The translations under genes and the position numbers were made by a program. A stretch of 64,000 nt of DNA, taken from an uncultured delta proteobacterium. Lineage in GTDB: Bacteria > Desulfobacterota > Desulfomonilia > Desulfomonilales > Desulfomonilaceae. The notes beneath the pieces are model-generated. The model searched no databases and was not told the origin of the DNA. It saw only the letters and a program-made list of their open reading frames with translations. The stretch lies in NCBI GenBank assembly GCA_963789265.1, contig CAWBKB010000001.1, forward strand, positions 96,001 through 160,000. Direction: 5' to 3'. This document shows positions 44,461 to 63,995 of this stretch, in pieces (position 1 is the first letter of the stretch; the number at the start of each line of letters is the position of its first letter).

Positions 44461-45228
44461 TCACTTGGGCGTGAACCGTTCATACTGGTCTTCGATAATC
44501 GTTCCTCTCGGTTTCGACTGCTGCAGTATTTCAACCACGGATTTGTGACCACGTGCTTTTGCCCAGTCTAGTGCAGTTTTTCCATCCCTGGCTCTGACTT
44601 TGGTATTAGCTCCTTTCTGTAAGAGAATCTTAACAATCTCGGCCCTCCCAAAGCCCGCGGCCAAAATCAGTGGGGTCCATCCGTCATTTGATTTTGCTTC
44701 CACATTTGCGCCGGCCTTGAGAAGAGCTTCCACACATGGAACGTGGTTGGCCCTGATGGCGAGATGCAGAGCCGTCATCCCGTATTTGTCGGCCAAGTTT
44801 AGTAGCGTGCGGTTCTGTATCAGCAGTTCCGTGACGCCCGGCTGGCCGTACCACGAAGCTTGATGCAGAGCCGTTTCACCGGAATTATCCCGGATTTGAA
44901 GGTTTGCGCCTTTCTTGACGAGGAGATCGACCATCTTGACGTAGCCCCATTGCGATGCCTTGATCAGGGCCGTTGCACCATACTTATCTTTGGCATTTAT
45001 CGATGCACCTTTCCCTAAGAGCTGAGCCACTGCCTCGAGATTGTTGTTATCTGCTGCGAGCAACAGCTCATCTTCCAACTGTCCTTTGCCAAGAGCTGGT
45101 TGAGGTGCGTTCATCAATCCTCTCTGAGGTGGAGCCGAGTGTCGCATCTCCGGTCGGCCCTGGGCAAAAATGGAAACAGTCTGACCGACCAAAGACAGCA
45201 TAAGGACTACAAGCAAAACGTGCCTCAT
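44461..45228 (-). CDS. Secreted ankyrin-repeat protein
   Basis: Signal peptide MRHVLLVVLMLSL; repeats GATALIKA, GETALHQA, GMTALHLA, GWTPLILA. Confidence 0.9.
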   Translation of the reverse strand: MRHVLLVVLMLSLVGQTVSIFAQGRPEMRHSAPPQRGLMNAPQPALGKGQLEDELLLAADNNNLEAVAQLLGKGASINAKDKYGATALIKASQWGYVKMVDLLVKKGANLQIRDNSGETALHQASWYGQPGVTELLIQNRTLLNLADKYGMTALHLAIRANHVPCVEALLKAGANVEAKSNDGWTPLILAAGFGRAEIVKILLQKGANTKVRARDGKTALDWAKARGHKSVVEILQQSKPRGTIIEDQYERFTPK

Positions 45229-45272
45229 ATCATGACTCCCTTCGCGCGACTGGGTTGGCAGTTGGAGCAAGC

Positions 45273-46040
45273 TTATTTGGGTACGAACCGATTACCGCTC
45301 CGAGGTGAGAAAGTATTCATGCCCTTGGTCGCTTGCTCCAGTATTTTCACAATATCCGTATGGCCGGCTTGTCTGGCGTGATCCATTGCGGTTAAGCCCT
45401 GGTTATCCTGACTTTTCGGATTTGCTCCTTTCTTCAGGAGCAAGCGGACGATTTCCGGCTGCCCCCACGCGGCGGCGCAAATCAACGGTGTCCATCCATT
45501 TTGGGTTTTCGCCTCCAAGTCAGCTTGTTTTTCTATCATCAAGTTGGCGATCTGCGACCTGCTCGTGCTAATGGCACTCATGAGAGGGGTCAGCCCCGAT
45601 TGGTTAGGAGCATTCACGTCAGCGCCACGGTCCAACAATATCTGGGCAATGTCCAGATGGCCCATTTCCGCACTCGTATGAAGGCAGCACCAACCCCCGT
45701 CATCTCGAGCATTCACATCTGCTCCCTTTTCCAAAAGGAGCTTCGCCATTTCGGGAAATCCTCCGTACGCAGCCCACTTAAGCGGCCACCAGCCGTCTTT
45801 ATCGCGGGCATCAACTTGAGCGCCTGCTTTCAGTGCCCGAAGCGCCCCTGTCAAATCATCGAATTGCGACGCTTCCAGCAAGCGGGCATCTTCATTAGCG
45901 CCCTTGGTGACAAGGCTGTTCTCGACGAGGCTGTGTTGCCTCTCGGGACTTGTTTGCTTGAAAAGCTCACCGGGCTGTTGCGGGAAGGCTTGCCCGACGC
46001 CCAGAAAAGTCAATAAGGCCACTAAAATTGCGTTACGCAT
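45273..46040 (-). CDS. Secreted ankyrin-repeat protein
   Basis: Signal peptide; GADVNA repeats, GLTPLMSA, GWTPLICA. Confidence 0.9.
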   Translation of the reverse strand: MRNAILVALLTFLGVGQAFPQQPGELFKQTSPERQHSLVENSLVTKGANEDARLLEASQFDDLTGALRALKAGAQVDARDKDGWWPLKWAAYGGFPEMAKLLLEKGADVNARDDGGWCCLHTSAEMGHLDIAQILLDRGADVNAPNQSGLTPLMSAISTSRSQIANLMIEKQADLEAKTQNGWTPLICAAAWGQPEIVRLLLKKGANPKSQDNQGLTAMDHARQAGHTDIVKILEQATKGMNTFSPRSGNRFVPK

Positions 46041-46185
46041 TGCGTTCTCCCTGTCCGATTATTGCGACAAAACCCGGTGACGTACGCCTTGCATGGGTGA
46101 GATCAGGTGAAGCTCGCCACCCTCATTTGAAGATCTACCGGAGAAAGTGTCAATCTGTTTCCTCCACCGGAATGAACGGATTTGC

Positions 46186-46310
46186 TCACCACAGAGGCAC
46201 AGAGTTCACGGAGAAGACCTTTAATTTCACCACAGAGACACGGAGGACACTGAGAAAGAAAAATAAAGGAAAAATAATGGCTTTCTCTGTGAACTCTGTG
46301 TCTCTGTGGT
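46186..46310. repeat. CACCACAGAG..AC.GAG direct and inverted intergenic repeats
   Basis: Two direct copies (46186, 46227) and an inverted copy ctctgtgaactctgtgtctctgtgg. Confidence 0.75.
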
Positions 46311-46326
46311 TATTTTTGTCTTTCTA

Positions 46327-49200
46327 TCACTTCACTTCCCCCACCAAAATAAACGGAGCCCAGTAAAACGGATGCTCATACCCTTCCGACCTGATCTCTT
46401 TCCGGGCCATTTGAAGGGCCTCTAGCCGGTTCTTGCCCTGTTTGATGTAAGACAAGAATTTCTCAGTCATCTTTGTGGTAGATACCTCAGAGACGCTCCA
46501 CAGGCTCATGAGCACGGATTTTGCGCCCGCATATTGAAAGGCCCTGCCCATTCCCATCGTTCCTTCGCCCTTGACCTCACGTCCAAGACCTGTCTGGCAA
46601 GCGGTCAGCGCGACAACATCCGCGCTCAGGTCCAAGGACATCACCTCGGACATTCTCAGGAAGCCATCCTTATCTTTTGGCTGGCCCACAAGAGTCAAGA
46701 TCAGCACCGGCTCCATGATCCCCGGCAAGCTTTCACCCACATAGCCGTGAGTTGCAAATACGACAGTCCGGTACCTATCAAGCTTTTCCTTGAACAAAAG
46801 CGGCTTGGAGGCATGCATTCCCGTAAATAAATCGGTCAGATCGGGCTGCAGCTTCTTCAGCGCCGTACCCAGATCTCCGGTAAGCGGGAGCCTGTTGAAA
46901 ACAAGTCCTGTTTCATTCTTGATGGACATCAGCTTGCCCGAAACGGACGCGAGAAGCTTCTGACGGCGTTTACGCTCCGCTTGAAGAAGACGAGGATCAT
47001 CGGATTGAAATACCGGATCGGCCATCACAAGGGTCCGGGGACCGGTTTTCTTGGTGTGTCCCAGGGTTCTGGCCAGGGTAAGTGCTGTCAGTGACTGATA
47101 ATAGGATATGGGGTTTCTATCCCCAAAATAGGCTACACCTTCAGGGTACGGCCGCGGTCCTGAAGTATTCCAGCCTGTCCCTTCCTTTATGACCAGCATC
47201 TCAAACGGGAGCACTCCGAGCATCCCGTCCGGGAGAATGATGAGGGGTTGACCCTCCGGAATGGATGCCAGAAAATCACCCACGAGCATATCAAACAGCT
47301 TCTTTCCGGTTCCCAGGGCATCCTTGAAGGCCAGGAGATTTTTTGGCGTAATTTCATCCATGTCCAGAGGCTTGCGGAAGGACCGGACGAGTTGATTAAG
47401 CTCTTTCCTGGCAATGGGTTTGAAAAGGGACTTGACCAGGGTTTTCCCTTTGAGAAGCCACATACAGATCCCCGTGTCCGTGACCTGATAGGCAAGAGTC
47501 CACTCATCGGGTTTTACCGCGGTCTGCTCCACATCCATGGGCTGGGGATACTTTGTCGCGGCAAAGAGGGGGTATTCCTTGCGAAGCATATCAATGTGAG
47601 ATTGAAGCTCGCTTTTGACTTGTTTTATTTGGGGTTCAACCGAGTCAATGACCTCGCGGTTCCCCTTTTCGTACCCGGCCTGCCTTTTCTTGATGAGAGA
47701 TGCCAGGTGGTCGTTCAGTTGCAGGTCCTCCTTCAGGACATCTCCCGGGACCTTTACGGTTGCTTCGGAGGAGCGCCTGGACATGGATTCGGCAAAGATC
47801 CTTGCTTTGGTGTATTCCGATTGCTTGAGAGCCTCGACCGGCTTGTTCAGCTTCATGAGGACCCGGGTGAGTCCTTCATAAGGTTCGGTCCTCGCAAATC
47901 CCATTACCTTCACGTCGAAGAACCTGGCCCGTTCAGCCGCGGAGAGACCAGCCCTCATCTCCTCGGATTGATCCACGGCCTTGGTGAAATATTCCGCAGC
48001 CTTGGGATAGTCTTGCATGCCTTCGTACGCGAGTGCGAGACCGACCCATGAAACGAAAAGTGCGGTGGTGTCTTTTCGTTTCTCAGCAAATTTCAGAAGC
48101 CCTTCAGAACCCTCCTTTGCTTTTTGGTAGTCTCCTTCGAGGAGATGATCTCGGACGTACAAGGGGAAGTAGAGCGGCCCGCCGATAATGGATTTGGCGT
48201 ACGACTCGGCTCTCTCAATGTCGCCTAGGTCAAAATATACGTTTGCAATTTCGAATCGTAGGCGAGGGTGAAAGAACCCTGTTCTCTTCCATGCTGCAAC
48301 GGCTTTTTGCAGCATGTCCAAGGCCGCCTTGTAGTCACCTCGCTCAGCCTGTACACGTCCAATCTCTCTCAGCCCAAACCCTTCGCCCTGTGCGTCACCA
48401 ATCTGCTTGGCCAAATCAGCGCTCTTTTGGCAGCATTCAGTTGCCCGGTCGTACTGACCAATCTCGCGGTACACCCTTCCCAGCATAAGAAACGCACTGG
48501 ATTCCTCTCTTGGGCTCCCCGTTTTGTGGGCTATTTCCAAGGACCCCCGGTACGATTCGATTGCTTCGTGGTATTGCCCTCTATCCTGGTAAAGCGCTCC
48601 CAGCATAAGAAGAGCGTCGCCTTCATCCCCCACCTTCCCACTGCTTTTGTAGATGGCCAATGCCTTTGCGCAGAACTGAGCCGCCTTGTCCTCTTCGCCG
48701 ATGTCCCGGTATACGTGCGCCAGTCGCACAAGGGCGTCTGCTTCAATCTCCGAATCCATCAACTTCAGAGCCACACCGAGAGCTTTGTCTAGGTATTCAG
48801 CGGCCTTGCGACTCTGTCCCCAATTCGCGTACGTTGATCCCATGCCCAAAAGACTCTCGGCTTCATTTCTTTTGTCACCGAGCTTCCTTCTGATTACGAT
48901 GGCCTTCTCATAATATTTCGCCGCCTTATTCCATTGACTCAAGCGCTCATGAGAGCACCCCAAGTCATGGTTTGCATCCCCGATTCCTTTGACGAATCCT
49001 ACCCTCTCGAAGATTCTCAAAGTTCGCTCCACCCTCCCCATAGCCCTGTCCAAGTCGTCTTTGGAGTGAGTTTTACTCTCTATCGCCAAACCTTCCCTAT
49101 AAAGCCTCATTCCTTCTTCTTTGGACTGCGCCCACACCGGGCAACTCAGAAAGGTGAAAACATAGCAAAGAGCGGCAAGGACTGGAATTATCTTCTTCAT
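46327..49200 (-). CDS. Signal-peptide TPR-CHAT (caspase-like) protease
   Basis: N-terminal TPRs; ILPDGMLGVLPFEML, FATHG and LTACQTG catalytic dyad, SLWSV, HPFYWAPF. Confidence 0.92.
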   Translation of the reverse strand: MKKIIPVLAALCYVFTFLSCPVWAQSKEEGMRLYREGLAIESKTHSKDDLDRAMGRVERTLRIFERVGFVKGIGDANHDLGCSHERLSQWNKAAKYYEKAIVIRRKLGDKRNEAESLLGMGSTYANWGQSRKAAEYLDKALGVALKLMDSEIEADALVRLAHVYRDIGEEDKAAQFCAKALAIYKSSGKVGDEGDALLMLGALYQDRGQYHEAIESYRGSLEIAHKTGSPREESSAFLMLGRVYREIGQYDRATECCQKSADLAKQIGDAQGEGFGLREIGRVQAERGDYKAALDMLQKAVAAWKRTGFFHPRLRFEIANVYFDLGDIERAESYAKSIIGGPLYFPLYVRDHLLEGDYQKAKEGSEGLLKFAEKRKDTTALFVSWVGLALAYEGMQDYPKAAEYFTKAVDQSEEMRAGLSAAERARFFDVKVMGFARTEPYEGLTRVLMKLNKPVEALKQSEYTKARIFAESMSRRSSEATVKVPGDVLKEDLQLNDHLASLIKKRQAGYEKGNREVIDSVEPQIKQVKSELQSHIDMLRKEYPLFAATKYPQPMDVEQTAVKPDEWTLAYQVTDTGICMWLLKGKTLVKSLFKPIARKELNQLVRSFRKPLDMDEITPKNLLAFKDALGTGKKLFDMLVGDFLASIPEGQPLIILPDGMLGVLPFEMLVIKEGTGWNTSGPRPYPEGVAYFGDRNPISYYQSLTALTLARTLGHTKKTGPRTLVMADPVFQSDDPRLLQAERKRRQKLLASVSGKLMSIKNETGLVFNRLPLTGDLGTALKKLQPDLTDLFTGMHASKPLLFKEKLDRYRTVVFATHGYVGESLPGIMEPVLILTLVGQPKDKDGFLRMSEVMSLDLSADVVALTACQTGLGREVKGEGTMGMGRAFQYAGAKSVLMSLWSVSEVSTTKMTEKFLSYIKQGKNRLEALQMARKEIRSEGYEHPFYWAPFILVGEVK

Positions 49201-49373
49201 GACTCCTCCAGGCAGGACTCGAAGCGGAACGATTCCCTCAAAATGTTAGTGGCAAAAGACTGTTCAAGATGACACCTGTAAACGATTATACGGGCTTCAT
49301 CGTGAAGTAGGTAAAGAATCCCGTGAAATAATACCAGTGCGCCGTCAAACAAGTAACAATCTTAGACAAGATA

Positions 49374-49575: not shown

Positions 49576-50226
49576 CTACTCCACGCCCAATCTCTTTGCC
49601 GGGGCTTTCTTTAACATCTCGGCTATTTCCGTGTACCCGAATAAATTGGCAAATTTTGCCGCATCAACACCTTGACGATCCTTGAGCGCGGGATTTGCCC
49701 CTTTTGCCAGCAGCTCTCTGACTACCGCCACCCTGCCGCTCGTGGCCGCGAACATCAAGGCCGACCAACCCGATTTCTGGGTCGCGTTCACGTCTGCCCC
49801 TTTTTCCAAAAGGAGTTTGACCACATCCGGGTAACCTTCTCGACTGGCCGCCATAAGAGCCGTAATGGCATCTTTGGTCTTAAGATTGGTATCTGCCCCT
49901 TTGTCCAAGAGAAGTTGGACTATCTGGATGAAACCCCGTTGAGAAGCATGAATCAGCGCGGTCGCTCCATTCCTGTCCCTGGCATCGACGCGGGCCCCTT
50001 GGTCCAATGCAGCGCCCACACCCGAGAAGAAGCCGGATGCGGCGTGCCTTATCATCTTATTTTCAGCTTGTCCCTTACTTATCAACCCGGAGAGGATTTC
50101 GGTCATATCCTGCTGGAGCTGGTCATAGGGCAGGGGAAGAGGATCTTCTCCGTGAGAGGGGAGCGCACCAACGAAGACGAACAATATCGCAGCCAACCAA
50201 AGAGCCTGTCTGGCCATGAGGATCAC
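49576..50226 (-). CDS. Secreted ankyrin-repeat protein
   Basis: Signal peptide; GATALIHA, ITALMAAS, GWSALMFA. Confidence 0.9.
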   Translation of the reverse strand: MILMARQALWLAAILFVFVGALPSHGEDPLPLPYDQLQQDMTEILSGLISKGQAENKMIRHAASGFFSGVGAALDQGARVDARDRNGATALIHASQRGFIQIVQLLLDKGADTNLKTKDAITALMAASREGYPDVVKLLLEKGADVNATQKSGWSALMFAATSGRVAVVRELLAKGANPALKDRQGVDAAKFANLFGYTEIAEMLKKAPAKRLGVE

Positions 50227-50279: not shown

Positions 50280-50672
50280 CCCCGCGGGACGCGGGGTTCC
50301 CCCCTTTTGTAAAGGGGGGCAGGGGGGATTTTTGGATAACCTATTGAAAATCCCCCTAAATCCCCCTTTAGAAAAGGGGGACTTTGATCGCCCTCGGCCT
50401 GCATGGACCTCCTGGAAAGGAACGAAATTGCCTTAAGTAAACGCGAATGCGCGGGACGCTGGAATCCGCTGTAGGGGCAGACCCATGTGTCTGCCCCTAC
50501 ATGCGCCGGTTCAAGTCCGGGGTGACGAATGACCGGCAATCCCGCGTTCCGCGCGGGACGGTCCCACCAAGGAGATTGCTTCGCTTCGCTCGCAATGACA
50601 ATCTCTTGCCGGCAGGGACGCCGGCACTACCGTGCAACCGGCACCGTACCTTGTGAAACGCGGTAGTAAGGG
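50280..50672. repeat. Multi-family REP-like hairpin cluster
   Basis: Two CCCCCTTT..AAAGGGGG hairpins, gtaggggcagacccatgtgtctgcccctac, gagattgcttcgcttcgctcgcaatgac. Confidence 0.8.
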
Positions 50673-50673
50673 C

Positions 50674-53600
50674 TTACCTTTTGTGCTTCTTCCACTTCTC
50701 TTTGAGCAACTTCCAACTGGCTTCTGTGGGAGTCATTGATTCCCCTTTCCCGAGAAATGCAGCAGGGTCGACGGTATCCAACACAACCAGCCTGGTAATG
50801 TAATTCGCGGCCGGGGTTGGTGCCTTTTTCTTCTGAGGTAGGATCCCGAGGTCGTCCGCCAGAGCTACCACCGGTCCGGGTCCTTCTACTCCTTTGGGAA
50901 TCGATTGTTTCAACGGTCGATGGGTCGCGACGAGGAGCATTCTTTCAGATCCCGGTTTTCCCGTAGCTTTGAGCGTCAGCCGGCACCACTCGTCGCTATG
51001 CACGAGCTTCGGCTGAGCCCGATCGACGGGAAAAAGCAATTGCAACGCACCGGACGCATCCATCTTGAAAGCATACAGATAAACATCGCGCGACGGCCGA
51101 ACTCGCACCTCGAACGGCTTTCCCAGCGCAAATTCGGGTAATCCGGTAATGTCCGGGCTATATTTGACCTCCAGCGAGGCTGAGCCCCGCTTTGTGAGTC
51201 CTCGGATGCGGCTCAATACGCCAACTGTTTTTATGGATTCGCTGATTTGTTGCGCCAGCGCCTGCGTATTTGTACCGGCGTCCAGCTTGAACCTTCCGTA
51301 GACCTCGTTCCTGTGGTTCATGACAAGGATCTCATTCCCGTCTGTGGTGTCGCCGAAATTGACGGTAACGTCGTCGAGCTGGTTGAAAGAGGTCACAGTT
51401 CTGAACAAGTTGCTTGAGGCAATGTTCCGGTCCACAAGTTTTGCGACAGCCATCATAGATTCGTTGCCCATAGCCTTTACGAGAAGTCTAACGGGAGTCT
51501 TGTCCAGGGACTTTGTTACGGGATGTTTGCCTACCCTGGTCTTGTACATTCCTCTTCCAAACGTCGAAGCGTACAGAGTGTCACCTTTCATGATCAGGTG
51601 CGTCACCGGCGCAAAAGCCAATCCTCTGTTCATGGGTTCCCAGTGCTCGCCGAGGTCGGCGGTGGTATATACTCCTAAATCGGTTCCCAGATAGAGCCTC
51701 TTGGGATCTCTGGGATCGAATATCACAGAGTTGACGGGCAGGTTCGTCGGCAGATCCGAGGTTACGGCCTTCCAGCTTTTCCCACCATCTGTGGTTCGCC
51801 AGGCCTGTTTCACTCCTTGCCTCGTATAAGTGACAAACACGCAATTCGGATCTTTCGGCCTTACCGAAATGCAGCTTATCCACGCACCGCGCGGAAGCGC
51901 ATCCTGCCCGACACGCTCAAATTTGGCTTCCTGAGCATCCGTATCCCGGCACACGAACAAAGCCCCGTCTGAGGACCCAACCCAGACTGTCCTGCTATTG
52001 GAGGGGTCCAACGCGATCCACGATATTGCCACCCAGGGAGAAGGCGCTCCCGCTGTGAGGTTTCCCGAGATGGCTTGCCAGGGGGCCGGAAGCTGTTTTC
52101 CATACGCTCTGAATTTGGTGTTGCGGTAGAGTCGGGTGGTCCCAGCCAGGGCATGATTTCCATCTTTGGGGTCTACGATGAACGGCGCAATAAACAGCCT
52201 GTAGTCCCTCTTATCAATTCCATTGGTGACAAACGCGAATTGATTTCCGTGAAGCCGCCAAATTTGGAGGTGATAGATCGATCCATACTTCAAGCTAGGG
52301 ACCTGCTGATCCCAAGCGCAAAATCCTCCGTCACCTCCGCCTGCCAACGCCCAGTCTTTAGGGTCTCCGCCCAGCCAAACAGGTGTGGCATTGTCCTGTG
52401 CACCGGCAATGATGCTCTCTTTTTGGGGATGCAGCGCAAAATTATAGAATTGGGTAATCGGTAACTGGGCTTTGGACTGGTTCCAGGTGCGGCCCGAGTC
52501 CCGACTTACAAACAGGCCGCCATCCGTGCATGCATAGACTGTCGAGGGCTTGAAAGGCGAGAATTGGATCTTGTGTATGTCCGCGTGAACATAGGAAAGA
52601 TTCCGGCTGTCGAAAAAATGGACATTCCATCTGGACACCTTTTCTACTGTTTTCCCTCCATCTTCGCTCCTGAACAAGTCTATCCCCCCAAGGATTATGA
52701 GGTTCGAATTCTTCGGGTCCACACCAATTGCATGTGCATACCATTGCTGTCCCCCAGTGTACTTTGTTTGCTGCTTCTCGTCGAAATAGGCTAGATAATC
52801 GAGCCCACCCGGAACTCGCCTGTACATTTGCTGCCAGGATGCCCCTCGATCTTTGGACCGGTATAGCGCAAGAGCGCCGCCTGTTTCCGCTTGGCCGGGA
52901 ACTTGCGGATTTCCTATCGAGGCGTATATTGTGCCGTCGCTTGCCCCGATTCCGAGAGCAATCCTTCCCGGCTGCACCGTGAGGTCCGGAAATTGGACCT
53001 TCTTCCAGGAACTTTCGGCGCCGTCCTTGTGACTCACAATGACCGTACCCGGAAGATGAGCCCACCCCTGGCCATAGGAGACGTAAAGCACGTCCGGATG
53101 CGTAGGATCGATGACCATGTCGGTTACCATCCCGCCTTTGCCCTCGATGGTGAAAGTGCGCTCCCAGGTTCTTCCGTCATCGGTCGAGCGCAGAATGCCA
53201 TAGTGATCTCCGACCAGAACAACTCCGGGCCGGGCCGGGTTCGTTACTATCTGATAGATCGGGATCGAGACCAAGGCGGGACCGCCCCCCGCGGTCTTCA
53301 CCGGTTCCCAAGTCTCGCCCGCGTCTTCGCTCAGGAGAATCCCCGCACCAATCGGTCGGGTCGTTCCCGAGCCAAACACATCTCCGCTGCCGGCAAACAT
53401 CTTTGACTGGTTTTTAGTTGACAAAGCCAGGGTATCAACAGTGAGCACGGAGAGAAAATCCCGACTTATGTTCCAGGTCTTCCCTCCATCACCGGTTTTC
53501 CAGATCCCCCCGCCCGGCAAAGCTATCCACATCACGGAGGGATCTTTCGGACGAAAGAGCAGGTCGGTGATTCGCCCCCCCACAAACGCCGGCCCCAACG

Positions 53601-53989
53601 AGGTCCACTGAGGATCGGGGGTTTTTCTGAAATCCTTTATCCTTTTGTCGAGGAGAATCGTGGACTCTTTGGCCTGAAGATAGGCAACGGGATCGAACTT
53701 GCCATTTGCGCCAACCCTTTGTCTGAATCTCAATTCAGCCAATTCCTCAGGGAACATGCCGCGTTGCAGGCGATTCCATTTGGCCTCGGCCTCCTCGCTC
53801 TCGTCCTCGACACCCGGAAGACGAATATGCACTTTTTGGGCCGATTGATTTTCAATATCTCTCGAAGGGAGATTTGAAATAGCAAAATGTTTCAATTTCA
53901 ATTCGGCTGAGCATTCAGATTGCATAAGTGCCGGCGCTAAGAGGACAAGAAACAGCCAGGAATAAGTTCAAGCGAAGGCTCGTGCTCAT
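50674..53989 (-). CDS. Secreted BNR/Asp-box beta-propeller protein with C-terminal DUF4384-like domain; frameshift in the signal peptide
   Basis: Many S/T-x-D-x-G-x-T/S-W boxes; YVHADIH, GAQDN, GGDGG, STFGRG; C-terminal DVYLYAF..GALQLLFP..GSERM; ATG 53989 with GAGG RBS. Confidence 0.8.
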
Positions 53990-55041: not shown

Positions 55042-56837
55042 CTATTTTGGGAACGATCTCAGCACCAAGCCCTTGGCACGCCAATCTCCTTTTGGTTTAC
55101 CCGAGGCCACGAGCTGCGACCAAAGCGTATCCAGGAATTGCTGCTGCTCGGATATGCCGGGATCTTGCATACTGCCGATGTCGTCTTTGTCCCAGAAATG
55201 GGTAAGTGCATCATACGGATGCGCCATCAGAAACGCAAAAATCATGTCCCGGCCAAATGGCTCCTGAACCGTAAAAGAATTGTCAGCTCCGATGACTATG
55301 GAGCGATTGGCTTCCAGCTTAAGCGGCCTTGATTGCGGCATTGGATAGAGAGGATGCAAGACGCCCACGGTGTCTACGCTGAAAATGTAGAGATAACCGG
55401 GGGTCTTTGTCTTGGCGTCCAGCAGGATCGTGTCCCCTTTCACCACTTCGCCTTGTGCTCTGGAAATGTTGCCTTTTATCTTGTAGTCAATATCGAAATC
55501 CGTCCTCGAAGCGGGATTTCGGAGTGCCGAAATACTCGCCTGAACGTACAGGGCTCTCAGATTTCCCACCAGGCCTCCCAGGGTCTCCTCAAGAGTCGAT
55601 CCTTGTTGGCTCTCCCAAACAGCTCCGGTGGAGTCGGAAATTTGCGCGAAGTACCGATGGTCTCGTTTCTCTATCACAACGAAAGCAGAGGCTTGTTCCC
55701 GCTTTTCCGTTAATTGGAGCCCCGGAATGTACCGATGAATCATGGAGCGAGTCTTCTCCATATCGGCCGGCGTGATCCCGCTTTCTGCTCTCAGCACATA
55801 GCCTATTCGTTGAGGCCTCTGGATCGACTCCTCGGCTTTAGCTACTCTGGTCTCCAAAGTCTCGTTCGCTATGTCTTTCGGCTGAAACTCGTATTGAGGG
55901 ACCTGGGGATAGCCGTCCCGTTTCACCGATTCCTGGAGGTACTTGGCCAAATTGGAGAAAGAGATCTTGCCGTCATGATTCAGATCAGCTTCTCCTTCCA
56001 GGCCGTGATAGAGGTACCACGTGAACACGCTATGCGGTCCCTTGGGATCTTTAGTAAAGGAAACGACTTGAGCAACTTGGGAATTCTCGCAAGCGGTGAA
56101 AGCAGCCAGTCGAATACCAAAAACCGTGAGATCCCCTCCAATGTAGGGCTTATTCGGTTCCAACGACTTGGGCTCGCTGAATCGCTTTTCCAGAATGCCC
56201 TTGAAGAAAGTAGGCTTCTGAAAGTTTTTGTTTTTCACGAGTCGGAAATTCAAGGCTTTGTACACGGACCCCGAATGGCACGAGTCACTTATGAAGATTA
56301 CCGACCTACCTTTAAGCTCACTGAGCAACTTATGAATTTCATCGCCAAGAAGAGCGTTGACTGTATCTTTTACATCGAATGCATGGCTGTTTCTGCCCTT
56401 AAAGGTTCTCTGAACCATGTCCTTGATGACGTTGCCATCATGAGGGATGAGGGCTTTTCCTTTTCCGTCCTGAATTTCGTGACCGTTCTCATCCCAGAAC
56501 CTGGATTCCGTGCCCGCTGAAATAGAACAAAGCGATATCTCCGGGGGCTGTCCCTTCGATAAGCCACTTATTGAAGCTTTTTACTATGTTCTCTTTGGTG
56601 GCCTCGGAATTGAGCAGGACCTTTACGTCCTTTTCTTGAAAGCCGCCCTTTGCGGTAAGGGCCTTCTTCAGGAGCCTTACATCATCCGAAACTCCTTCGA
56701 GATTCTGGTTCGGATCTCTGTATTGTTCCACCCCCACAAGAAGAGCCCTTTTTCGCGGCAAGGGCCGGGAGGGCGCAGGCGGCAAAAATCACCGCCAGGC
56801 CCATAAGAACAGCGATTGGATGGATGCTCGTTTTCAC
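55042..56837 (-). CDS. Signal-peptide caspase-family (C14) protease with C-terminal DUF4384; frameshifts near 56750 and 56495
   Basis: GTG 56837 then signal peptide; KRALLVGVEQY, ATKENI, FYFSGHG, ISDSCHSG, ADLNHDGKI; GYLYIF..GVLHPLYP..PFGRD. Confidence 0.82.
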
Positions 56838-56838: not shown

Positions 56839-57822
56839 TTAACGACACCTTTCATCGCTACGATAGTCGGCCGGTCCAATGGTATCGCCGTTCAGGACTT
56901 CCACGCGACGGTTCAACAAACGTCCCAATCCCGTGGCATTGGAAGCAATCGGACGATTTTGGCCGAAACTTTCAGGTACCAGGCGACCGGGGCGCACATT
57001 CCATTTTTCGGCAAGATACTGAATCACACTCTTGGCACGCCGATAACCAAGGTGGCAATTCCTTTCCGAGGTGCCAATGCTGTCGGTGTGGCCGTCGACA
57101 TAAAACTTCTCCACATCAGCCAGTTGAGTGGAATTTAGCGCCATGCCAAGCTGGTCCAACTGGTCACGCGAACTCGGCGTAAGTTTGGCCGAACCGGTTT
57201 CAAAAAGTATGCTGTGAAAAACGACTCTGGACTCATTCTCTTCGTCACGATCGTATCTGCCGTGTCGCGAAGATTCACCGTGCTCATGACGCGGACGACG
57301 CCCAGCCCGGAGAGATTCGACAATGACATCTTTACTTATCAGATCCTTGCGCCCCTTTGACTCAGTAGAGGACGGAGTTTCCCTGACAAGATTTTGGTAC
57401 TCCTTCAGCGCCTTTTTGTCGTGGCAGAAGCTCAGTCCGGTCTCGTAATAAGCCCGCGCGAGGGCGGGTCGATTCCGCTTGGTCAGATCTCGCGCGGCCT
57501 TCAGAACCTTCGGGCAGGTTGATGCGGTACCAAACTCCACCGCTTTCTGATATTGAGCCAGGGCTTCGGAGAACTTTCGTTGAGAATACAACGCATCTGC
57601 CTTCTTAAGAGCGGATACCGGGTCCCCTTTTTCAGGACAGAGCCTGGAGGCCTTGTACAACAATTCCGCTTTGATTTCGGATGGCATTGCGTTAGAGCCG
57701 CGAACGTCTTTGCGTATGGACGCAGCTCTGTCGCAATCGGAAGCATAGGCTTCCACGCCTCCCGAGGCCGTCAGGACAACCATGACGACCAGAAATGCCG
57801 ATGCAAAGGCATGTAATCTCAT
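56839..57822 (-). CDS. Signal-peptide TPR + OmpA-like protein
   Basis: ILFETGSAKL, VDGHTDSIG, NCHLGYRRAKSV, FGQNRPIASN, NRRVE. Confidence 0.9.
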   Translation of the reverse strand: MRLHAFASAFLVVMVVLTASGGVEAYASDCDRAASIRKDVRGSNAMPSEIKAELLYKASRLCPEKGDPVSALKKADALYSQRKFSEALAQYQKAVEFGTASTCPKVLKAARDLTKRNRPALARAYYETGLSFCHDKKALKEYQNLVRETPSSTESKGRKDLISKDVIVESLRAGRRPRHEHGESSRHGRYDRDEENESRVVFHSILFETGSAKLTPSSRDQLDQLGMALNSTQLADVEKFYVDGHTDSIGTSERNCHLGYRRAKSVIQYLAEKWNVRPGRLVPESFGQNRPIASNATGLGRLLNRRVEVLNGDTIGPADYRSDERCR

Positions 57823-58907
57823 GGCACCACCTTAAAGGAGGTCTTTGCCCTCGTGTACACTTTCCGAGGAAGGTCGTTTAACTGGACATCAATATCTTTG
57901 TCTATCTTGTCGCCCTTTTCTTCCCACGGTTGATACACGTATTTGTCAAAGTCGTATGAGCCTCGATACAGTTGGAGCTTTTGTTTCGTGAAAACCGCCT
58001 TCACAACTTCCACCCCTTTGGGGCCCTTGACCCTGAAGCGAAACTCATCGTCTTTTACAGTAGGAATCGCGACGACTTCGCCGCCTTTGACAAAATTGTC
58101 GCGTTGGAACCGGTTCGGGAAAATGACCTGAACTTTGTCACTGGTACCATAGTCGATGAGATTCAGGTATCCATCTCGCTCGGCATAAAAGTATAGTGTT
58201 ACGGGTTCGCCGATCTGGAAAACCTTCCTTTCGGTCCACAGTTTCGCGATCGGTCTCTCCTTGTCCGATTCACGCGTTGATTCCTCTACGGCCTCTTCTG
58301 TGTCTTCTTCCGCTTCAGCCCGGCGTGATACGATGGTGAAGTGCGTCTCTGCCTCAGTCCAGCCCTTCTTGTCCTGCTTGGCCAGTTCCACGCCAATGTC
58401 CTTTATGGCCTTTTCCGGATTTTTCACTTCAAAGAAAGGTCCCTCAGATTCCAGGAGTGCTTCTTTCCGGAAGCATCTGTAAGGCTTCAGAGTAGCTATT
58501 GCCTTCACGTAATTGACTCCGGTCGGGCCCTTCACCCTGAACACGTAGTCCGAATCTTTCGCGGGGATGGTGTAAACGCGACCCTTCACCACTCTGTTGG
58601 ATTTGTGATGCTTGGTGGGAAAAATCACGTGAACCTTGCCGCTCGTACCGATATCCACTATGGTAACGTACGCGTCCCGATTGGAAGTGAACCGAAATGC
58701 AACTCGGTCCCCAATACCAAATTTCCCACTCTTCCTTGCCGGCTTGATTTTTACTTTGAAATCGGGGTTGTCGGAATGGATCTTGGAAGCCTCCTGGATC
58801 ACGATGTCCTTGGCTTCCTTTTCCGCCGCCAGTGCTGCGCCGCTCCAAAGCAGCAATGAAAACATGGCCATTGCGATAAACACTGTGGATTTAAAATTCC
58901 TGTTCAT
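57819..58907 (-). CDS. Secreted tandem DUF4384 protein
   Basis: Signal peptide; two internal repeats IGD/E..F..RDA/GY...D.GTS.KV.VIFP...FRVKGP.G...VKA. Confidence 0.8.
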   Translation of the reverse strand: MNRNFKSTVFIAMAMFSLLLWSGAALAAEKEAKDIVIQEASKIHSDNPDFKVKIKPARKSGKFGIGDRVAFRFTSNRDAYVTIVDIGTSGKVHVIFPTKHHKSNRVVKGRVYTIPAKDSDYVFRVKGPTGVNYVKAIATLKPYRCFRKEALLESEGPFFEVKNPEKAIKDIGVELAKQDKKGWTEAETHFTIVSRRAEAEEDTEEAVEESTRESDKERPIAKLWTERKVFQIGEPVTLYFYAERDGYLNLIDYGTSDKVQVIFPNRFQRDNFVKGGEVVAIPTVKDDEFRFRVKGPKGVEVVKAVFTKQKLQLYRGSYDFDKYVYQPWEEKGDKIDKDIDVQLNDLPRKVYTRAKTSFKVVP

Positions 58908-58925
58908 GGATGCCTCTCCTTTCGC

Positions 58926-60368
58926 TCAGAATTTGATATCACGGGCCAAGCCGTACTCGTCTGTGATTTGGGGTGTCTGATGCTCAACCAATGAAGAAGT
59001 CTCTTCCATCACGTTCTGGCGAGTCTTCTCAAAGGCGACCTGAAGATTCGGCGCACGATCTTTTATATTGGTTACAAGCCAGTAAGTGAACAATCCTGCG
59101 TGCTTAGCTTTATCCTCGTACGAGGATTCAGGTTTGGCGCACGCGGCCAGAAGCGACTCCTTCTCCGTCAATGTGTCGCCGTATGCAGCACGGGTTGTAC
59201 CACTGGCCACGAACTGGAGTTCCTTTTGTTTCTCACGATGAATCCTGTGGATTTCTGCCGGGCTGAGCAGCGGAAGATACTTTAAGACGAACCTTGAGGA
59301 AAGCTCTTTAGTAATGGAGCCGCTGTGGCAGGAATCTACGGAGATCAATTTTCGCCTTGCCGGGATCTTTTTCAATAAGTCGGCGAAATCGGTGCCGACA
59401 AAGAGTATGTTCTTCAGGTCAGGATCGCTCAGGCGAAGTCGCTTCTTACGGCTAAAGCAAACAAATGCCGCGGACAGACCATCAGGGTGCTTTACAGGCG
59501 GCACATCCGGAATCAGGGTCCCGTGTCCACTGAAATAGATGAGCACGAGATCTTCCGGTTGGGTCCTGGACGCAAGCCCCTTCAATGCCTCGACAAATCC
59601 TGCTCGCGTAGCCTGAGGGCCGATAAGGACTCGTGTGTTTCCCGCTGGAATGCTGAGCTTGTCGGCCATCAGCCGGGCAAATCCCTTGGCATCCTCGTCG
59701 CAGTAACGCAGCCCTAGAGTTGCGGCTCCCACGCTTACTAGGAACACATTCCGGCTGGTGATACTTCCGCCCTCAGGCACGTTCCCGATCACCAGTCTGG
59801 TTTCGGCTGTGCCCCATTTCACATTCTGTGAGAGGCCGTCCGTCCTACTTGCGGCTTCAACTACCAGATCCTTCAGATTCTTCTGATAAGACTTGAAGCC
59901 TCCACGGTACTCACCGAACTCGTCATCTCTCAAAATCGCGTTTTTCTTTGTGGTAGCGACGGCCACGATTCTCTCGATCCCCACCGGTCCGGAAACCCTG
60001 AACACAAATTTGTCTGAGGCGCCTGGGAAAGAGTGTCGCTTGTGCGCTTTGACAAAATTGTCGCTTCCCGAAAACTCATTTGGCCAAAGCCGCGTAATTT
60101 TCCCCGATGTCCCAACATCGATCAGGGTCAGGTAGCAATCCTTATCCGGTTCAAAGTGAACAGTAACCGTGTCGCCCGGTTTGATCTTCGTCTTATCGAC
60201 AGAGAGATTTACGTTAATTCTTGTCTTGCTTTTCCCGTTAGTCGGCACCACTTGTATGTCTTTGTTAAATGAAAACTCCTTGTCCTTGGCGCCGGCCTGT
60301 GCGAACGACATTAAAACGCACATCACCGCGGCCAAAACGGCCAAGAACATTTTGTCGATGCGAGCCAT
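58926..60368 (-). CDS. Secreted DUF4384 + caspase-family (C14) protease
   Basis: Signal peptide; DCYLTLIDVGTSGKITRLWPN...GPVGIERI; IYFSGHG, VDSCHSG, GLFTYWL, QTPQ. Confidence 0.87.
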   Translation of the reverse strand: MARIDKMFLAVLAAVMCVLMSFAQAGAKDKEFSFNKDIQVVPTNGKSKTRINVNLSVDKTKIKPGDTVTVHFEPDKDCYLTLIDVGTSGKITRLWPNEFSGSDNFVKAHKRHSFPGASDKFVFRVSGPVGIERIVAVATTKKNAILRDDEFGEYRGGFKSYQKNLKDLVVEAASRTDGLSQNVKWGTAETRLVIGNVPEGGSITSRNVFLVSVGAATLGLRYCDEDAKGFARLMADKLSIPAGNTRVLIGPQATRAGFVEALKGLASRTQPEDLVLIYFSGHGTLIPDVPPVKHPDGLSAAFVCFSRKKRLRLSDPDLKNILFVGTDFADLLKKIPARRKLISVDSCHSGSITKELSSRFVLKYLPLLSPAEIHRIHREKQKELQFVASGTTRAAYGDTLTEKESLLAACAKPESSYEDKAKHAGLFTYWLVTNIKDRAPNLQVAFEKTRQNVMEETSSLVEHQTPQITDEYGLARDIKF

Positions 60369-60759
60369 TCGCTGCCTCCCGGCCTATCGGCCTTTGTGCC
60401 AAAACCAATTTGACTCCGCTACTTCCAGTTGGGCTGGTTCAATAGCGTGACACAATTCCTCGGAAGACCTCGCCATTGCCGACAGTCTGCCGGAAATGGA
60501 GCTTGGTCTTGTTCTTCTTATTGCTGGTCTGTGAAACGCTCATCGGAATACTCACAACTCCCTTCGTTTTGCCTCTCATTTCCTCGTTATTGCCATGCTT
60601 ACCTCCTCGTCGAAAACATTAGTGGCAACTCGTTCTCTTTGGTGACAGCACACACCCAAAAACCTCACGAAATTTTGGGGGTCCTGCTATTGCGCCGGAT
60701 ACAGCCCGACCACACGGCGCACTAAATTCTTGGAAGTATTGGGGGCTCCTGAACTGCAA

Positions 60760-60929
60760 CTTAGTACACCTTTTCGCAAATACCGTGACGTTATGAACCC
60801 GGAACGGAAGAAGATTGCTTCGCTGCGCTCGCAATGACAGGTAGTGAGAATGTCATTGCGAGGAGTGAAACGACGAAGCAATCTCCACCGCTACAATACG
60901 TGACCGAACTTGTGGAACATGGTACTTAG
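60760..60929. repeat. MITE-like unit with imperfect terminal inverted repeats enclosing inverted GATTGCTTCG..CTCGCAATGAC hairpins
   Basis: cttagtacaccttttcgcaaat ... acttgtggaacatggtacttag; internal inverted pair at 60813-60884. Confidence 0.55.
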
Positions 60930-61192
60930 GAACGGCGATTCCCCGGTCCTCGTCAACTAATCACAACTCATGCTTTTATGTTTGTGTGTACTTCTTTCAC
61001 AAGCAGACAATCAATCGATGCTTGCGACTAACATGCCTGCCGGTCACACATGAAGGTGGCATTTTCCATTCTGTAAGATCTATCCCGTGGCGTGGCCAAG
61101 GGGTCAAGTGGGCACAAGCAACCTTTCGTCCTAATCCGGGTTGCAGGTTACTGAGGGTTCGGTTGTCTTCGGATAGTCCCATGTCAAAAGCA

Positions 61193-62909
61193 TCATCGTT
61201 TGGGTACTCGAATTATTGGATGAAGTTTGTCCAGATGGCCTTCAAGTATTCGGCCTTCCCATTCGACGTTGTTTACAGGGCCTTCTCTTCCTGAAGCAAT
61301 CTGATCGTTCCACGCTTCGAAGAACACCATTTCAATTCCCTTGGGTTTGAATTTCTGCTTTCTAATGGTGTAGCTCGTTTGAAATGGAGCGATAGCCCAC
61401 TGATAATAGTATACCTTTCCTGATCTTTCCTTTACCTGGAAAACGTCTACGGTCACAGCGGGCTTTCTGGCAAGTTCGAGCAAGTAAGCGCCGTGCGTCT
61501 TCCAGAATGCATCGTTAGTTGTGAGAGGCTGGGATTCACGAGCCAGCTTCGCCAGTCCTTCAAAGAGAGATCTCAAGTCTCTCACTTGTATTTGCTTCCC
61601 AAGTTTCTTCTGGGGCCTTACTAAGAACTCCGCGGCAGATTTCTGAAATGCGGCCGGACGATTTCGCCAGTGCGAGCAAATATTGCTCGGAACCAGGTTC
61701 CAGGTAAAGTTTCACCCCGTCCGGAATCTTCTTCTCCACAGGCACGCTTTTGCGCACAATCATCGAAACTTTGGCCATTAGGGCTGTTTGCTCGGCCAAT
61801 GAAGTGATAGACGCTGCAAAGAAATTCCGACGCATGAGATTCTTTTCCCAGCCTTTTCCTCCGAGCGATATCGCCCGGAGTACGGTTTGGTAGTAGTTGT
61901 CGCCCTTCGAAGAAACCCTTTCTCCTAAGCCCTTGACTTCCCGCCCGCCGGCTCGGGCTCCTTTCAACAGATTGTTGAACCGAAGCACCTCGGCTATTTT
62001 CTTCCTCGGCATGTCGTTGGAGATGAACTGGCGCTTCATCTCATCAATGACCGATTCGTGAAACGTTACACGTTCTCCAAAGGGTTGGATGCCCAGTCCT
62101 CTCTCGGGGTTGATTCGCGGCTGACCTTTTGCCTCGGCCCATTTCTGGACGATTTCTCTAGTTAGTTCCCCATTTTTTGCAATATCCGCTAGATCTGAAA
62201 ACGTGGGGACATCCGAAGGGCCGTTAATCTGAGAATAAAATGAGTGGACCAGCATCCATCCCTTGACTGAATCCTTGTTAGCGGGATCTGCAAAAATCTT
62301 CCGAACGGCAAGAGCGGTTTTAAAAGGGAAGAGCATGTACTTTGGAAATGGGAACGATTCCTTTTTGACCGCAACATTGACCGTTGTTTTGGCCAGATAC
62401 TGCATTGCGATAAAATATTTCTGTAAAGATTCGGTCTCCGTATAATGGCCCCTTGGTTTAAACATCGGATTGGATTTGACCTCCCCGGCCTGTTTAACTG
62501 CCTCCTGGGACAGCTCAAGCCCCGGATCTTTAGCCAGTATCACAAGAGGCACACTGAAAAGCCTTCGGGTGTTTTCGTCAGTGGCTGCGTTGGCCAGGCT
62601 CCGAAGTGCGTGCTCCAAAACGGGGATGAGCACAGCCTCTTCGAGGAGCTTCTGGTTCTCTTGAGCATGCCCCTTCATCACCTGAAATAGGTAGGAATTG
62701 CTCAAAACCACCGGGCGTCCGCGGATGAGTTCCTGTTTCACCCAGTCTTTTTCGGTTGGACTCACTTCGGAAACAAGTCTCGGATTTAATGGTTTCCCGG
62801 AATCTCGAGCGCCGGCCTTTGGAGCACGCCCCTCGACACCCGCAATCATTATCAACGATACCAGGAGGGCCGTAACACATCCAACAAAGTGTTTCATCCC
62901 AGCGCTCAT
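61193..62909 (-). CDS. Secreted DUF3160-like protein, frameshift near 61590
   Basis: Signal peptide; FKPRGHYTETESLQKYFIAMQYL, FGER, YLEP; C-terminal part in ORF 61193-61585. Confidence 0.65.
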
Positions 62910-63410
62910 TGTCGCCTCCCCAGGAAGTGAAAGTCTTTTCCGGCAATGTCCGGACGAATCTCATAAGAATGATTTGGCTTCAAATGATCTGATTCATCTG
63001 CACCGACGCGTCCCGTCAACCGGGACAACGGGAATGAGGAGAGAATTCCTAAAATCAATTTCTTAAGATACATCTGAATTTCAACTCCCCTGTGTCAGGT
63101 CAACCATCTTCGTCAAAGAACTTAGTAGGCAATTCGTCTTTCCGGTGACAAAGTCGCTCCATTTTTCGTACCACGGAGGAGACCCGCCCCCTTGTCCCCC
63201 CATTTTCATCCTTTGAAACGAAATTACGCAATCAGGTCATTGAGGTCAATGAATTTAAGCTGATGGTCTCGAAACCGAAGACAATTTACGCTGAAAAAGA
63301 ATAGGGCCTCACTCTGTCATTTTTTACCACGACCGGCGACATTATAACTTGAAAATGTTTCCCAACAAATCCAAAATTGGATCAGGAGCCAATTGCGAGG
63401 GAGCGTTTCC

Positions 63411-63995
63411 ATGCATAAGCGTTATTTGCACCGCGGTGGTTTTGTAAGATTTTTCCAAAGCTTGAGCCTCATTTTCATCCTGGTTGCGGGCCTCGGCGCG
63501 CTTCATGCGGAGGACAAGAACTCAGCCTTAATAGAGGCCGCGTCGGATGGTCAAACCGAGAAAATCCAAGCTCTTTTGACCCAAGGAACGGATACCAACG
63601 CGCGGGATCAGTATGGTAACACCGCGCTGATGCAAGCTTGCTGGTACGGTCGAGTCGAAGCGGTGAGACTTCTCCTTGGAAAAAAGGTCGATGTCAACGC
63701 CACGAACGCCAGGGGCAGGACCGCCCTGATGTGGGCTTCCCGTAACGGCCCAAGTGAATCGGTTCGACTGCTGCTGGATCACGGAGCAGATGTTAACGCC
63801 AAGGACGCGGACGGCTCCACTGCCTTGATCTGGGCTGCCGGTGAATGGAATGCGGAGATCGTCAAATTGCTCCTTGCTAAAGGCGCGGATGTCAATGTCA
63901 AAGACAAGCAAGGGAGGACAGCCATACAGCTTGCAGCAGCAGCGGGCCACACTAAGACTGTCGAGCTGCTCAAAGCACGCGGTGCGAAGGAGTAG
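63411..63995 (+). CDS. Secreted ankyrin-repeat protein
   Basis: Signal peptide; GNTALMQA, GRTALMWA, GSTALIWA. Confidence 0.9.
   Translation: MHKRYLHRGGFVRFFQSLSLIFILVAGLGALHAEDKNSALIEAASDGQTEKIQALLTQGTDTNARDQYGNTALMQACWYGRVEAVRLLLGKKVDVNATNARGRTALMWASRNGPSESVRLLLDHGADVNAKDADGSTALIWAAGEWNAEIVKLLLAKGADVNVKDKQGRTAIQLAAAAGHTKTVELLKARGAKE

Follow-up and report, generated by a model that had tools for sequence, protein, structure and literature searches.

What has been worked out about caspase and CHAT proteins in bacteria concerns almost entirely the cytoplasm, and includes gasdermin activation, Craspase and the effectors of cyclic-oligonucleotide-based antiphage signalling systems (CBASS). The only characterised periplasmic clan CD case found in our literature searches is DdvA of Myxococcus xanthus. 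There DdvS, a sigma factor of the extracytoplasmic function (ECF) type, is paired with DdvA, a transmembrane zinc anti-sigma factor with a fused periplasmic tetratricopeptide repeat (TPR)-CHAT protease, whose self-cleavage is proposed to start sigma release (PMC11506125). Here we analyse a gene cluster at positions 44461–63995 of a 64,000-nucleotide stretch (the whole of which we call the window; contig CAWBKB010000001.1, positions 96,001 to 160,000) from an uncultured soil relative of sulfate reducers, in which caspase-like proteases, wall anchors and scaffolds are encoded with export signals. An earlier note on this stretch had described it as an extracytoplasmic protease system. We propose, at a probability of roughly 45%, that the cluster specifies an exported assembly of several proteases, anchored to peptidoglycan and tied to an ECF sigma/anti-sigma switch, in which the proteases probably act on the anti-sigma factor.

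Two other descriptions come close in part. The survey of Asplund-Samuelsson et al. (2012) records OmpA in 14 metacaspase operons and probable N-terminal signal peptides on metacaspases; in Deltaproteobacteria it lists operons that contain more than one metacaspase gene, and among the metacaspase operons of Myxococcus and others it notes genes of the sigma-70 family (PMC3501461). The type III-E Craspase system comprises Cas7-11, the TPR-CHAT protein Csx29, Csx30, Csx31 and RpoE; there a clan CD protease cleaves the sigma-holding protein, and some C-terminal domains of Csx30, the substrate that binds RpoE, are DUF4384, a domain that its authors describe as often fused to protease domains (bioRxiv 10.1101/2022.08.17.504292).

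Results

A six-gene run encodes putative exported proteases, scaffolds and wall anchors

The cluster consists of minus-strand genes at 44461–62909 and one divergent plus-strand ankyrin gene, as judged from the open reading frame (ORF) listing and Pfam. Within it, a six-gene run has the order DUF4384-caspase, tandem DUF4384, TPR-OmpA, caspase-DUF4384, TPR-OmpA and BNR/sortilin-type propeller-DUF4384 (Table 1). Pfam searches of the window ORFs bear out all the domain calls of the earlier note, the DUF3160 match being weak (E 4.9e-8). The intergenic distances that it gave (18, −4, 1, 10 and 37 bp) are correct with starts at GTG 56837 and ATG 53989, and hold only when three frame breaks, treated below, are read through.

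Export was scored by a hydrophobic-window heuristic (H12) on the 12 cluster proteins and on 23 other proteins of the window. H12 was at least 2.5 in 11 of the 12, with basic residues preceding the hydrophobic stretch and small residues trailing it; the propeller, scored in its broken frame, reached 1.74. Five of the 23 controls exceeded 2.3, and four of these are expected to be exported (a periplasmic binding protein, a CBAH-family hydrolase, a cytochrome P460 and an S9 peptidase), the fifth being the first ORF of the window. Set against these controls, the heuristic agrees with the claim that all 12 proteins begin with signal-peptide-like sequences.

The three proteases of the cluster keep their His-Cys dyads, as had been reported: in translation, both caspases contain FSGHG and DSCHSG, and the CHAT protein contains ATHG and LTACQ. 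DUF4384-caspase 1 has 31 full-length relatives in public data (34–79% identity) and matches Peptidase C14 (PF00656) with 56.8 bits, the cut-off being 21.4. In an alignment of 24 of its orthologues, H282, D226 and D345 are invariant and C347 is kept in at least 90%; one of the 24 has lost the catalytic Cys. The AlphaFold2 (AF2) model of the protein (predicted local distance difference test, pLDDT, 84.6; predicted template modelling score 0.83) has a caspase fold, matched by Foldseek to GSU0716 (E 3.4e-13) and also to AtMC9, AtMC4, Yca1 and MALT1, and the sequence profile likewise matches plant metacaspases and GSU0716. D226 (C-x-x-D) and D345 (DSC) align with CVND and DSCHSG of AtMC4 (Arabidopsis metacaspase-4). 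By analogy with structure work on T. brucei MCA2, these acidic residues may form the S1 pocket, and the alignment with AtMC4 together with that work suggests Arg/Lys specificity for the DUF4384-caspase.

In the TPR-CHAT protein a full-length CHAT domain (PF12770, profile positions 3–289 of 289), with its His and Cys, follows the TPR repeats (TPR_12 E 2.9e-39); phmmer against PDB sequences returned TPR proteins only and no CHAT structure. The OmpA domains of TPR-OmpA-like proteins 2 and 1 score 51.4 and 62.4 bits (PF00691 cut-off 27.2), and GHTD, RRAK/ERAK and NRRV motifs are visible in them, as in the family. The conserved GHTD/R/NRRV residues are presumably those that bind peptidoglycan, and such binding is predicted here.

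The core of the run is conserved in relatives

One genome per species was scanned with an orthologue profile, followed by tblastn and Pfam; L003 to L013 denote loci found in relatives. The first five genes of the run occur in the same order in L003, from a Desulfomonile tiedjei metagenome-assembled genome, and in L006, both of them Desulfomonilaceae genomes. Matching positions are taken there by orthologues of TPR-OmpA protein 2 (48–55% identity), and protein 1 also has orthologues in both (41–42%). Conserved co-occurrence in other genomes, on which the earlier note had made its proposal depend, is thus found. Smaller and variant versions of the core are present in eight further loci. L005, L007 and L012 have a reduced core, made up of one or both of caspase-DUF4384 and DUF4384-caspase, a tandem or single DUF4384 gene, and OmpA. 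L004 has DUF4384-caspase, tandem DUF4384 and DUF4384-subtilase, with no OmpA gene within the stretch examined. L008 and L009 share a variant with TPR-OmpA, caspase-DUF4384, DUF4384, DUF4384-caspase, serpin, OmpA and ankyrin genes, to which L009 adds a TPR-CHAT gene, and L010, whose contig begins at TPR-CHAT, has the part from TPR-CHAT to ankyrin. The TPR-CHAT homologues in L009 and L010 (37% identity) adjoin DUF4384 genes. In L013, from the cultured species Azospirillum agricola, the sequence of DUF4384-caspase and tandem DUF4384 is called as a single ORF of 911 residues, with a WD40-caspase after it.

Where the propeller stands here, L004 and L006 encode a DUF4384-subtilase; in L003 there is a DUF4384-trypsin, close to a serpin gene. 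Serpins of full length (Pfam E 1e-98 to 1e-123) lie in or beside caspase/DUF4384 operons at L003:4307-5572, L008:11483-12796, L009:11462-12775 and L010:7165-8400; none was seen in the examined parts of the island to which the window cluster belongs.

These comparisons bear on a looser reading of the cluster, that only a three- to five-gene core (caspase-DUF4384, DUF4384 and OmpA) cooperates and that the TPR-CHAT, ankyrin, DUF3160 and propeller genes encode independent exported proteins in a variable region. The propeller is not conserved, the DUF3160 match is weak, and ankyrin and TPR-CHAT genes are absent, as far as examined, from the cores of L003, L005, L006, L007 and L012, all of which would suit it. 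We nevertheless regard it as improbable: the same-strand run, which in L009 and L010 includes TPR-CHAT, goes on from OmpA to an ankyrin gene in L008, L009 and L010; TPR-CHAT or ankyrin genes come after the anti-sigma gene introduced below in 6 of 30 loci, and DUF3160 homologues flank the operon in L003, L005, L006, L085, L086, L088 and L090.

DUF4384 is shared by varied enzyme heads

Within the same operon types, DUF4384 is found on either end of caspases and also on a subtilase (L004 and L006), a trypsin (L003) and, in this genome, the propeller; stand-alone copies are always encoded alongside fused ones. Database proteins join it to other envelope-type domains: a tandem copy to OmpA (P0083), a copy to Sel1 and PG_binding_1 (P0103), and copies to CsgG (P0105 and P0107). 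These fusions, like the signal peptides and OmpA-like domains of the cluster, fit the predicted extracytoplasmic location that had been proposed for the system. A search for longer fusions of the tandem-DUF4384 protein found none, which is weak evidence.

The AF2 model of the tandem-DUF4384 protein (pLDDT 86) shows a pair of beta-sandwich modules, with a helix and a strand after each and an acidic disordered linker (residues 197–214, pLDDT below 50) between them. Foldseek and a wide structural search matched it to alpha2-macroglobulin and complement macroglobulin (MG) domains, RbmA, transglutaminase barrels and PKD/CBM domains. The best single-domain match was 2p9r_B, an alpha2-macroglobulin MG domain (Z 8.6, root mean square deviation 1.9, 88 of 97 residues), with PKD, CBM and FnIII domains within 1 Z unit of it, and phmmer against the PDB gave no match below E 0.03. 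DUF4384 is most likely a common assembly or targeting module. The earlier suggestion of a shared docking module gains comparative support where sharing is concerned, varied heads occupying the same operon positions; its docking role is a proposal.

An ECF sigma/anti-sigma pair adjoins the proteases

The cluster is the leading third of an accessory island that spans about 56 kb and runs about 35 kb past the window end, into stretches of this genome that we call L001 and L002. The earlier note had the genes of the cluster right and missed this continuation, the frameshifts and an ECF sigma/anti-sigma pair. Pfam on the window and the two further stretches counts 5 caspase and 6 TPR-CHAT genes, or 11 clan CD protease genes, in the island. 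The genome has 8 DUF4384 matches, of which 7 exceed the Pfam cut-off, and 7 caspase matches; all of the former and 6 of the latter fall in C1:146-196 kb.

About 7 kb separate the six-gene operon from the pair, which is found about 6.6 kb past the window end and before a paralogous caspase-DUF4384 gene. The ECF sigma factor is encoded at L001:8674-9387 (TIGR02937, 87.9 bits). Next comes P0037, a protein of 345 residues with two HxxxCxxC zinc motifs, one transmembrane helix, a 170-residue periplasmic domain to which no Pfam family corresponds, and weak anti-sigma matches in NCBIfam; the caspase-DUF4384 gene follows. The genome has two such sigma/anti-sigma pairs, each then followed by a caspase gene; the second trio is on another contig (G000:C5:610483-613182) and has a caspase ORF of 792 residues.

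In relatives the pair stands closer to the operon studied here. In L003 and L004 the DUF4384-caspase operon has a P0037 orthologue and its sigma gene directly upstream; in L003, L086 (the G042 locus) and G031 the pair comes after DUF3160, and in L003 and L086 it also precedes the caspase gene. Ankyrin protein D of the window has a 64% identical orthologue that adjoins a sigma gene in L083. Anti-sigma homologues are present in 59 of 70 family genomes, and we surveyed the neighbours of the best anti-sigma locus from each of 30. A sigma gene lies upstream in 29 of the 30. In 15, the 1.5 kb downstream contain a same-strand caspase or DUF4384 gene, with three distinct caspase paralogue types at the position after the anti-sigma gene; TPR-CHAT is next in 4, and an ankyrin gene only is present in 2 (in one of these on the opposite strand).

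The same arrangement could arise if the proteases were output only, that is, if the ECF sigma factor regulated the island and the proteases had no control over the sigma factor, serving instead to break down or reshape proteins of the envelope or outside the cell, with serpins as inhibitors in relatives; matrix turnover, surface maturation or the scavenging of proteins would be examples. Sigma/anti-sigma pairs usually precede the genes that they regulate, as here; the mixed protease classes, accompanied by serpins, are reminiscent of secreted sets for degradation or processing; RbmA, a matrix scaffold, is among the matches of the tandem-DUF4384 model; and the six-gene operon of the window has no sigma pair of its own. 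Such a purely downstream role seems to us somewhat unlikely. The tight sigma/anti-sigma/caspase trio recurs with different caspase paralogues, which is hard to explain for one of many members of a regulon, and in clan CD, metacaspase-like or CHAT enzymes that have TPR, ankyrin and Sel1 proteins as partners typically cleave specifically and under regulation, in contrast to bulk digestion.

Several results weigh against proteases assembled on DUF4384 scaffolds and acting on the anti-sigma factor. No sigma/anti-sigma pair stands directly upstream of the six-gene operon, and tblastn at E 1e-3 detected no remnant of one in 60369–61192. In the 30-locus survey, 8 loci have no recognised protease within 1.5 kb of the anti-sigma gene and 1 is cut by a contig end. 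The anti-sigma periplasmic domain has no similarity to the tandem DUF4384 (hhalign probability 0.03), and no shared docking domain links the anti-sigma factor to the proteases. No common ECF-type promoter emerged from 11 sigma upstream regions and the upstream region of the operon, a crude −35/−10 search giving no pair in more than 4 of the 12 sequences. Beta-sandwiches like the one that DUF4384 matches are very common, and the Z of 8.6 is near the search background; the structural match says little about function. Of 69 other family genomes, 7 have full-length orthologues of the tandem-DUF4384 protein (at least 53% identity), and the 6 genomes of the same genus have none, a patchiness that marks the module as dispensable and accessory. 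The propeller has no match covering at least 40% of the protein in L003 to L013, and by this comparison its gene is outside the conserved core. The related genomes are kin, so that the counts given here overstate independence. A complex prediction for residues 27–480 of the DUF4384-caspase with residues 178–345 of the anti-sigma factor returned a score of 0.00 (mark 0.32), and counts neither way.

A possible mechanism

We picture the proposed assembly as follows. C14 metacaspase-like proteases, and in relatives also proteases of the subtilase and trypsin types, would each bring a DUF4384 beta-sandwich, and stand-alone DUF4384 and TPR-OmpA-like proteins are co-encoded with them. DUF4384 would bring the varied enzyme heads onto a scaffold, which the OmpA-like domains would fix to the wall; exported TPR-CHAT, ankyrin and propeller proteins may be interchangeable adaptors or substrates. 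An ECF sigma factor and its anti-sigma factor, a zinc-finger transmembrane protein, would be linked to this assembly; in relatives the pair stands at the head of the orthologous operon. In such a scheme the exported clan CD proteases would most likely be signal-dependent proteases acting on the periplasmic domain of the anti-sigma factor, by which envelope events would turn on the sigma regulon. DdvA, as a periplasmic TPR-CHAT anti-sigma factor, and the DUF4384 C-terminal domains of Csx30 may, by analogy, serve as precedents.

A bolder extension, which we think improbable, is a periplasmic cascade like the extracellular cascades of animals: zymogen metacaspases and serine proteases with MG/FnIII-like DUF4384 domains, on a peptidoglycan-anchored scaffold, would be checked by serpins and triggered by receptors, and the output would be anti-sigma cleavage leading to transcription. 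TPR, ankyrin or propeller receptors might in that case sense envelope proteins that are foreign or damaged.

Envelope defence or programmed death, with periplasmic sensing of phage, predator or toxin proteins and then either their destruction or cleavage of the cell's own envelope tethers, appears very improbable. Its attractions are the patchy accessory distribution and strong paralogue expansion of the island, the plausibility of OmpA-like tethers as self-targets, and the control of a defence island by the only characterised periplasmic TPR-CHAT. The 104 kb examined have no known defence genes, gasdermin or nuclease effectors by Pfam, no phage or mobile-element genes were noticed, and PADLOC on 16 island proteins gave generic ankyrin, TPR, MotB and caspase matches only. 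NCBIfam, too, gave generic or sub-threshold matches only. The defence role that the earlier note had entertained is not indicated.

Three of the four frame breaks are assembly errors

In the sequence as given, three genes are broken by four frameshifts. Caspase 2 lies in three frames, with a signal peptide from 56837, an N-terminal half containing SGHG at 56492–56788 and a C-terminal half containing DSCH and DUF4384 at 55042–56418. The signal peptide of the propeller is out of frame with the rest of the protein. The DUF3160-like gene is split near 61605–61624, and by tblastn its L003, L005 and L006 homologues continue in another frame to 61193.

Contigs from three public soil-metagenome short-read runs were aligned to 53800–56900, of which one run, X1, covers 22 of 30 bins. 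The X1 contigs have indels relative to this region only at 53950, 56498 and 56749, with one base missing at each, and two of the three sites are homopolymer runs; one of the eight X1 pieces has a single substitution, not listed as a variant. The extra base at 53950 is in the propeller and those at 56749 and 56498 are in caspase 2, and by frame arithmetic dropping all three restores a single frame in both genes. Since the short-read contigs do not have these bases and caspase 2 reads through in a single frame in its L003 and L006 orthologues, the three insertions are assembly errors; the short-read support has a depth of 2–3.6 with one contig per site, and all three runs come from one study, possibly from the source sample. 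The gene boundaries that had been drawn across the breaks are accordingly right. We rejected the idea of true pseudogenes, as the short-read contigs differ by exactly the three extra bases and similar splits affect other genes, housekeeping ones among them.

A gene of the xanthine-dehydrogenase family at 1379–4070 is present as two overlapping ORFs, its a/b-hammerhead domain cut at profile position 70–72, and this split is probably another assembly indel. Beyond the window, several TPR-CHAT genes and a CHASE2 cyclase are also split. A noisy long-read assembly would explain all these breaks in this genome of 6.06 Mb in 9 contigs, and the split gene at 1379–4070 suggests that the whole assembly needs polishing.

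Neighbouring genes and other features

The features of the cluster are collected in Table 1. For ankyrin protein A the likely start is ATG 45228, which puts the signal peptide at the N terminus. Convergent to the two exported ankyrin genes at this end are a Fur-family regulator and a catalase-peroxidase of 736 residues (PF00141), at 40825–43840 of the window. In Pseudomonas, a periplasmic ankyrin protein is linked to catalase (AnkB/KatB).

Table 1. Features of the protease cluster in the window, with domain and export evidence.
Feature	Position	Strand	Evidence
Ankyrin-repeat protein A, putatively exported	44461..45270	-	Pfam Ank_2 1.6e-40; H12 3.04
Ankyrin-repeat protein B, putatively exported	45273..46040	-	Pfam Ank_2 1.1e-57; H12 2.78
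TPR-CHAT protease, 957 residues, putatively exported	46327..49200	-	ATHG and LTACQ; CHAT E 1e-50; H12 2.58
Ankyrin-repeat protein C, putatively exported	49576..50226	-	Pfam Ank 2.3e-27; H12 2.91
Dispersed palindromic repeat copy just 3' of operon	50575..50610	.	13-base core match from 50587
BNR/sortilin-type beta-propeller with C-terminal DUF4384	50674..53989	-	Sortilin-Vps10 1.2e-24; DUF4384 6.5e-8; start ATG 53989
TPR-OmpA-like protein 2, putatively exported	54027..55031	-	Pfam OmpA 1.4e-13; TPR_12
Caspase (C14)-DUF4384 protein 2	55042..56837	-	Start GTG 56837; Peptidase_C14 on both pieces; DUF4384 9.3e-9
TPR-OmpA-like protein 1, putatively exported	56839..57822	-	Pfam OmpA 5.4e-17
Tandem-DUF4384 protein, putatively exported	57819..58907	-	Pfam DUF4384 3.4e-47, two copies
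DUF4384-caspase (metacaspase-like) protein 1, putatively exported	58926..60368	-	Pfam
Intergenic stretch upstream of operon	60369..61192	.	Palindromic repeat copy at 60826
DUF3160-like protein, putatively exported	61193..62909	-	Weak partial Pfam DUF3160 4.9e-8; frameshift near 61605-61624
Ankyrin-repeat protein D, divergent, complete, putatively exported	63393..63995	+	Pfam Ank_2 4.7e-69

An imperfect palindromic repeat flanks the six-gene operon on both sides, at 50587 and 60826, with arms that contain GTCATTGCGAGCG and its reverse complement. Its 13-base core, at up to 1 mismatch, has 159 matches in the genome, these two being the only ones in the window, and the repeat looks like a dispersed element of the repetitive extragenic palindromic (REP) type. 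A scan of 60300–61650 for sigma-70 promoters and terminators gave counts no higher than in shuffled sequence.

By Pfam, the 40 kb that follow the window contain a TPR-CHAT gene split in three ORFs, the caspase-DUF4384 gene, the 345-residue protein and the ECF sigma factor described above; one OmpA gene, one TPR-OmpA gene, a second TPR-CHAT gene, a VanX-like dipeptidase and a split caspase-Sel1 gene; and three further TPR-CHAT genes, a caspase-Sel1 gene, a DUF4384 protein, a split CHASE2 cyclase and a chagasin/papain pair. The caspase-Sel1 gene, single-DUF4384 protein and CHASE2 adenylate/guanylate cyclase (the last split in three ORFs) stand in a row on the plus strand at L002:9394-14149, and the cyclase beside caspase-Sel1 and DUF4384 points tentatively to a second-messenger output. 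The island ends, at L002:15721-17658, with genes for an exported chagasin-family inhibitor (I42), an exported 139-residue protein of unknown kind and a papain-family C1 protease, a further protease/inhibitor pair. Peptidoglycan-precursor enzymes recur near the module: a VanX-like D-Ala-D-Ala dipeptidase (M15) is found at L001:15077-15781 and L008:4937-5683, and a Mur-ligase/alanine-racemase fusion lies beside the module at L005:15655-18252.

Discussion

The island offers a compact conserved set of candidate partners, comprising protease, DUF4384 scaffold, wall anchor, inhibitor and anti-sigma factor. It makes testable an envelope signalling cascade run by exported caspase-like enzymes, the role of DUF4384 and the connection between proteases and ECF sigma factors. 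If proteases of this kind do act on the anti-sigma factor, regulated anti-sigma proteolysis would extend to a new protease clan.

We considered and rejected membership in the Craspase and gasdermin groups. The Craspase system is cytoplasmic and RNA-guided, whereas export signals run throughout this cluster, and no CRISPR component was seen. Neither the gasdermin-caspase nor the SAVED-CHAT (CBASS) systems fit, as the proteases have export signals and no neighbouring gene has a Pfam match to gasdermin, SAVED or CD-NTase. The metacaspases AtMC4, AtMC9, Yca1 and GSU0716 have the fold, the His-Cys dyad and the acidic residues of the putative pocket in common with the caspases here; they are cytosolic or uncharacterised single proteins, whereas the caspases of the cluster are predicted to be exported and are fused to DUF4384. 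The available text of the 2012 survey foreshadows operons of this kind, and in that text no mechanism, DUF4384, TPR-CHAT, ankyrin, serpin, anti-sigma factor or wall-anchored assembly appears (PMC3501461).

Literature searches found no characterised system with this architecture, in agreement with the earlier note, and DdvS/DdvA comes closest. That note had called the characterised caspase and CHAT systems cytoplasmic, which is incomplete in view of the periplasmic TPR-CHAT of DdvA (PMC11506125). The two systems share a clan CD fold with a His-Cys dyad in the periplasm (predicted here), a genetic tie to an ECF sigma factor and a single-pass zinc-finger anti-sigma factor, and the proposed logic by which periplasmic proteolysis would begin sigma release; the L001 pair, which lies outside the coordinates that the note had covered, is of this DdvA/DdvS type. 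They differ in that TPR-CHAT is fused to the periplasmic end of the anti-sigma factor in DdvA, whereas here the proteases are separate genes, and those beside the anti-sigma gene are C14 metacaspase-like with DUF4384, unlike the TPR-CHAT of DdvA. The DdvS/DdvA regulon is one of CBASS and CRISPR defence genes; here no such genes were seen by Pfam in the 104 kb or by PADLOC on the 16 island proteins. Many paralogues, OmpA-like anchors, ankyrins and DUF4384 scaffolds further set this island apart from DdvS/DdvA. The known kind to which it comes closest is thus that of ECF-linked periplasmic clan CD proteases, here in an architecture to which our literature searches found no characterised counterpart.

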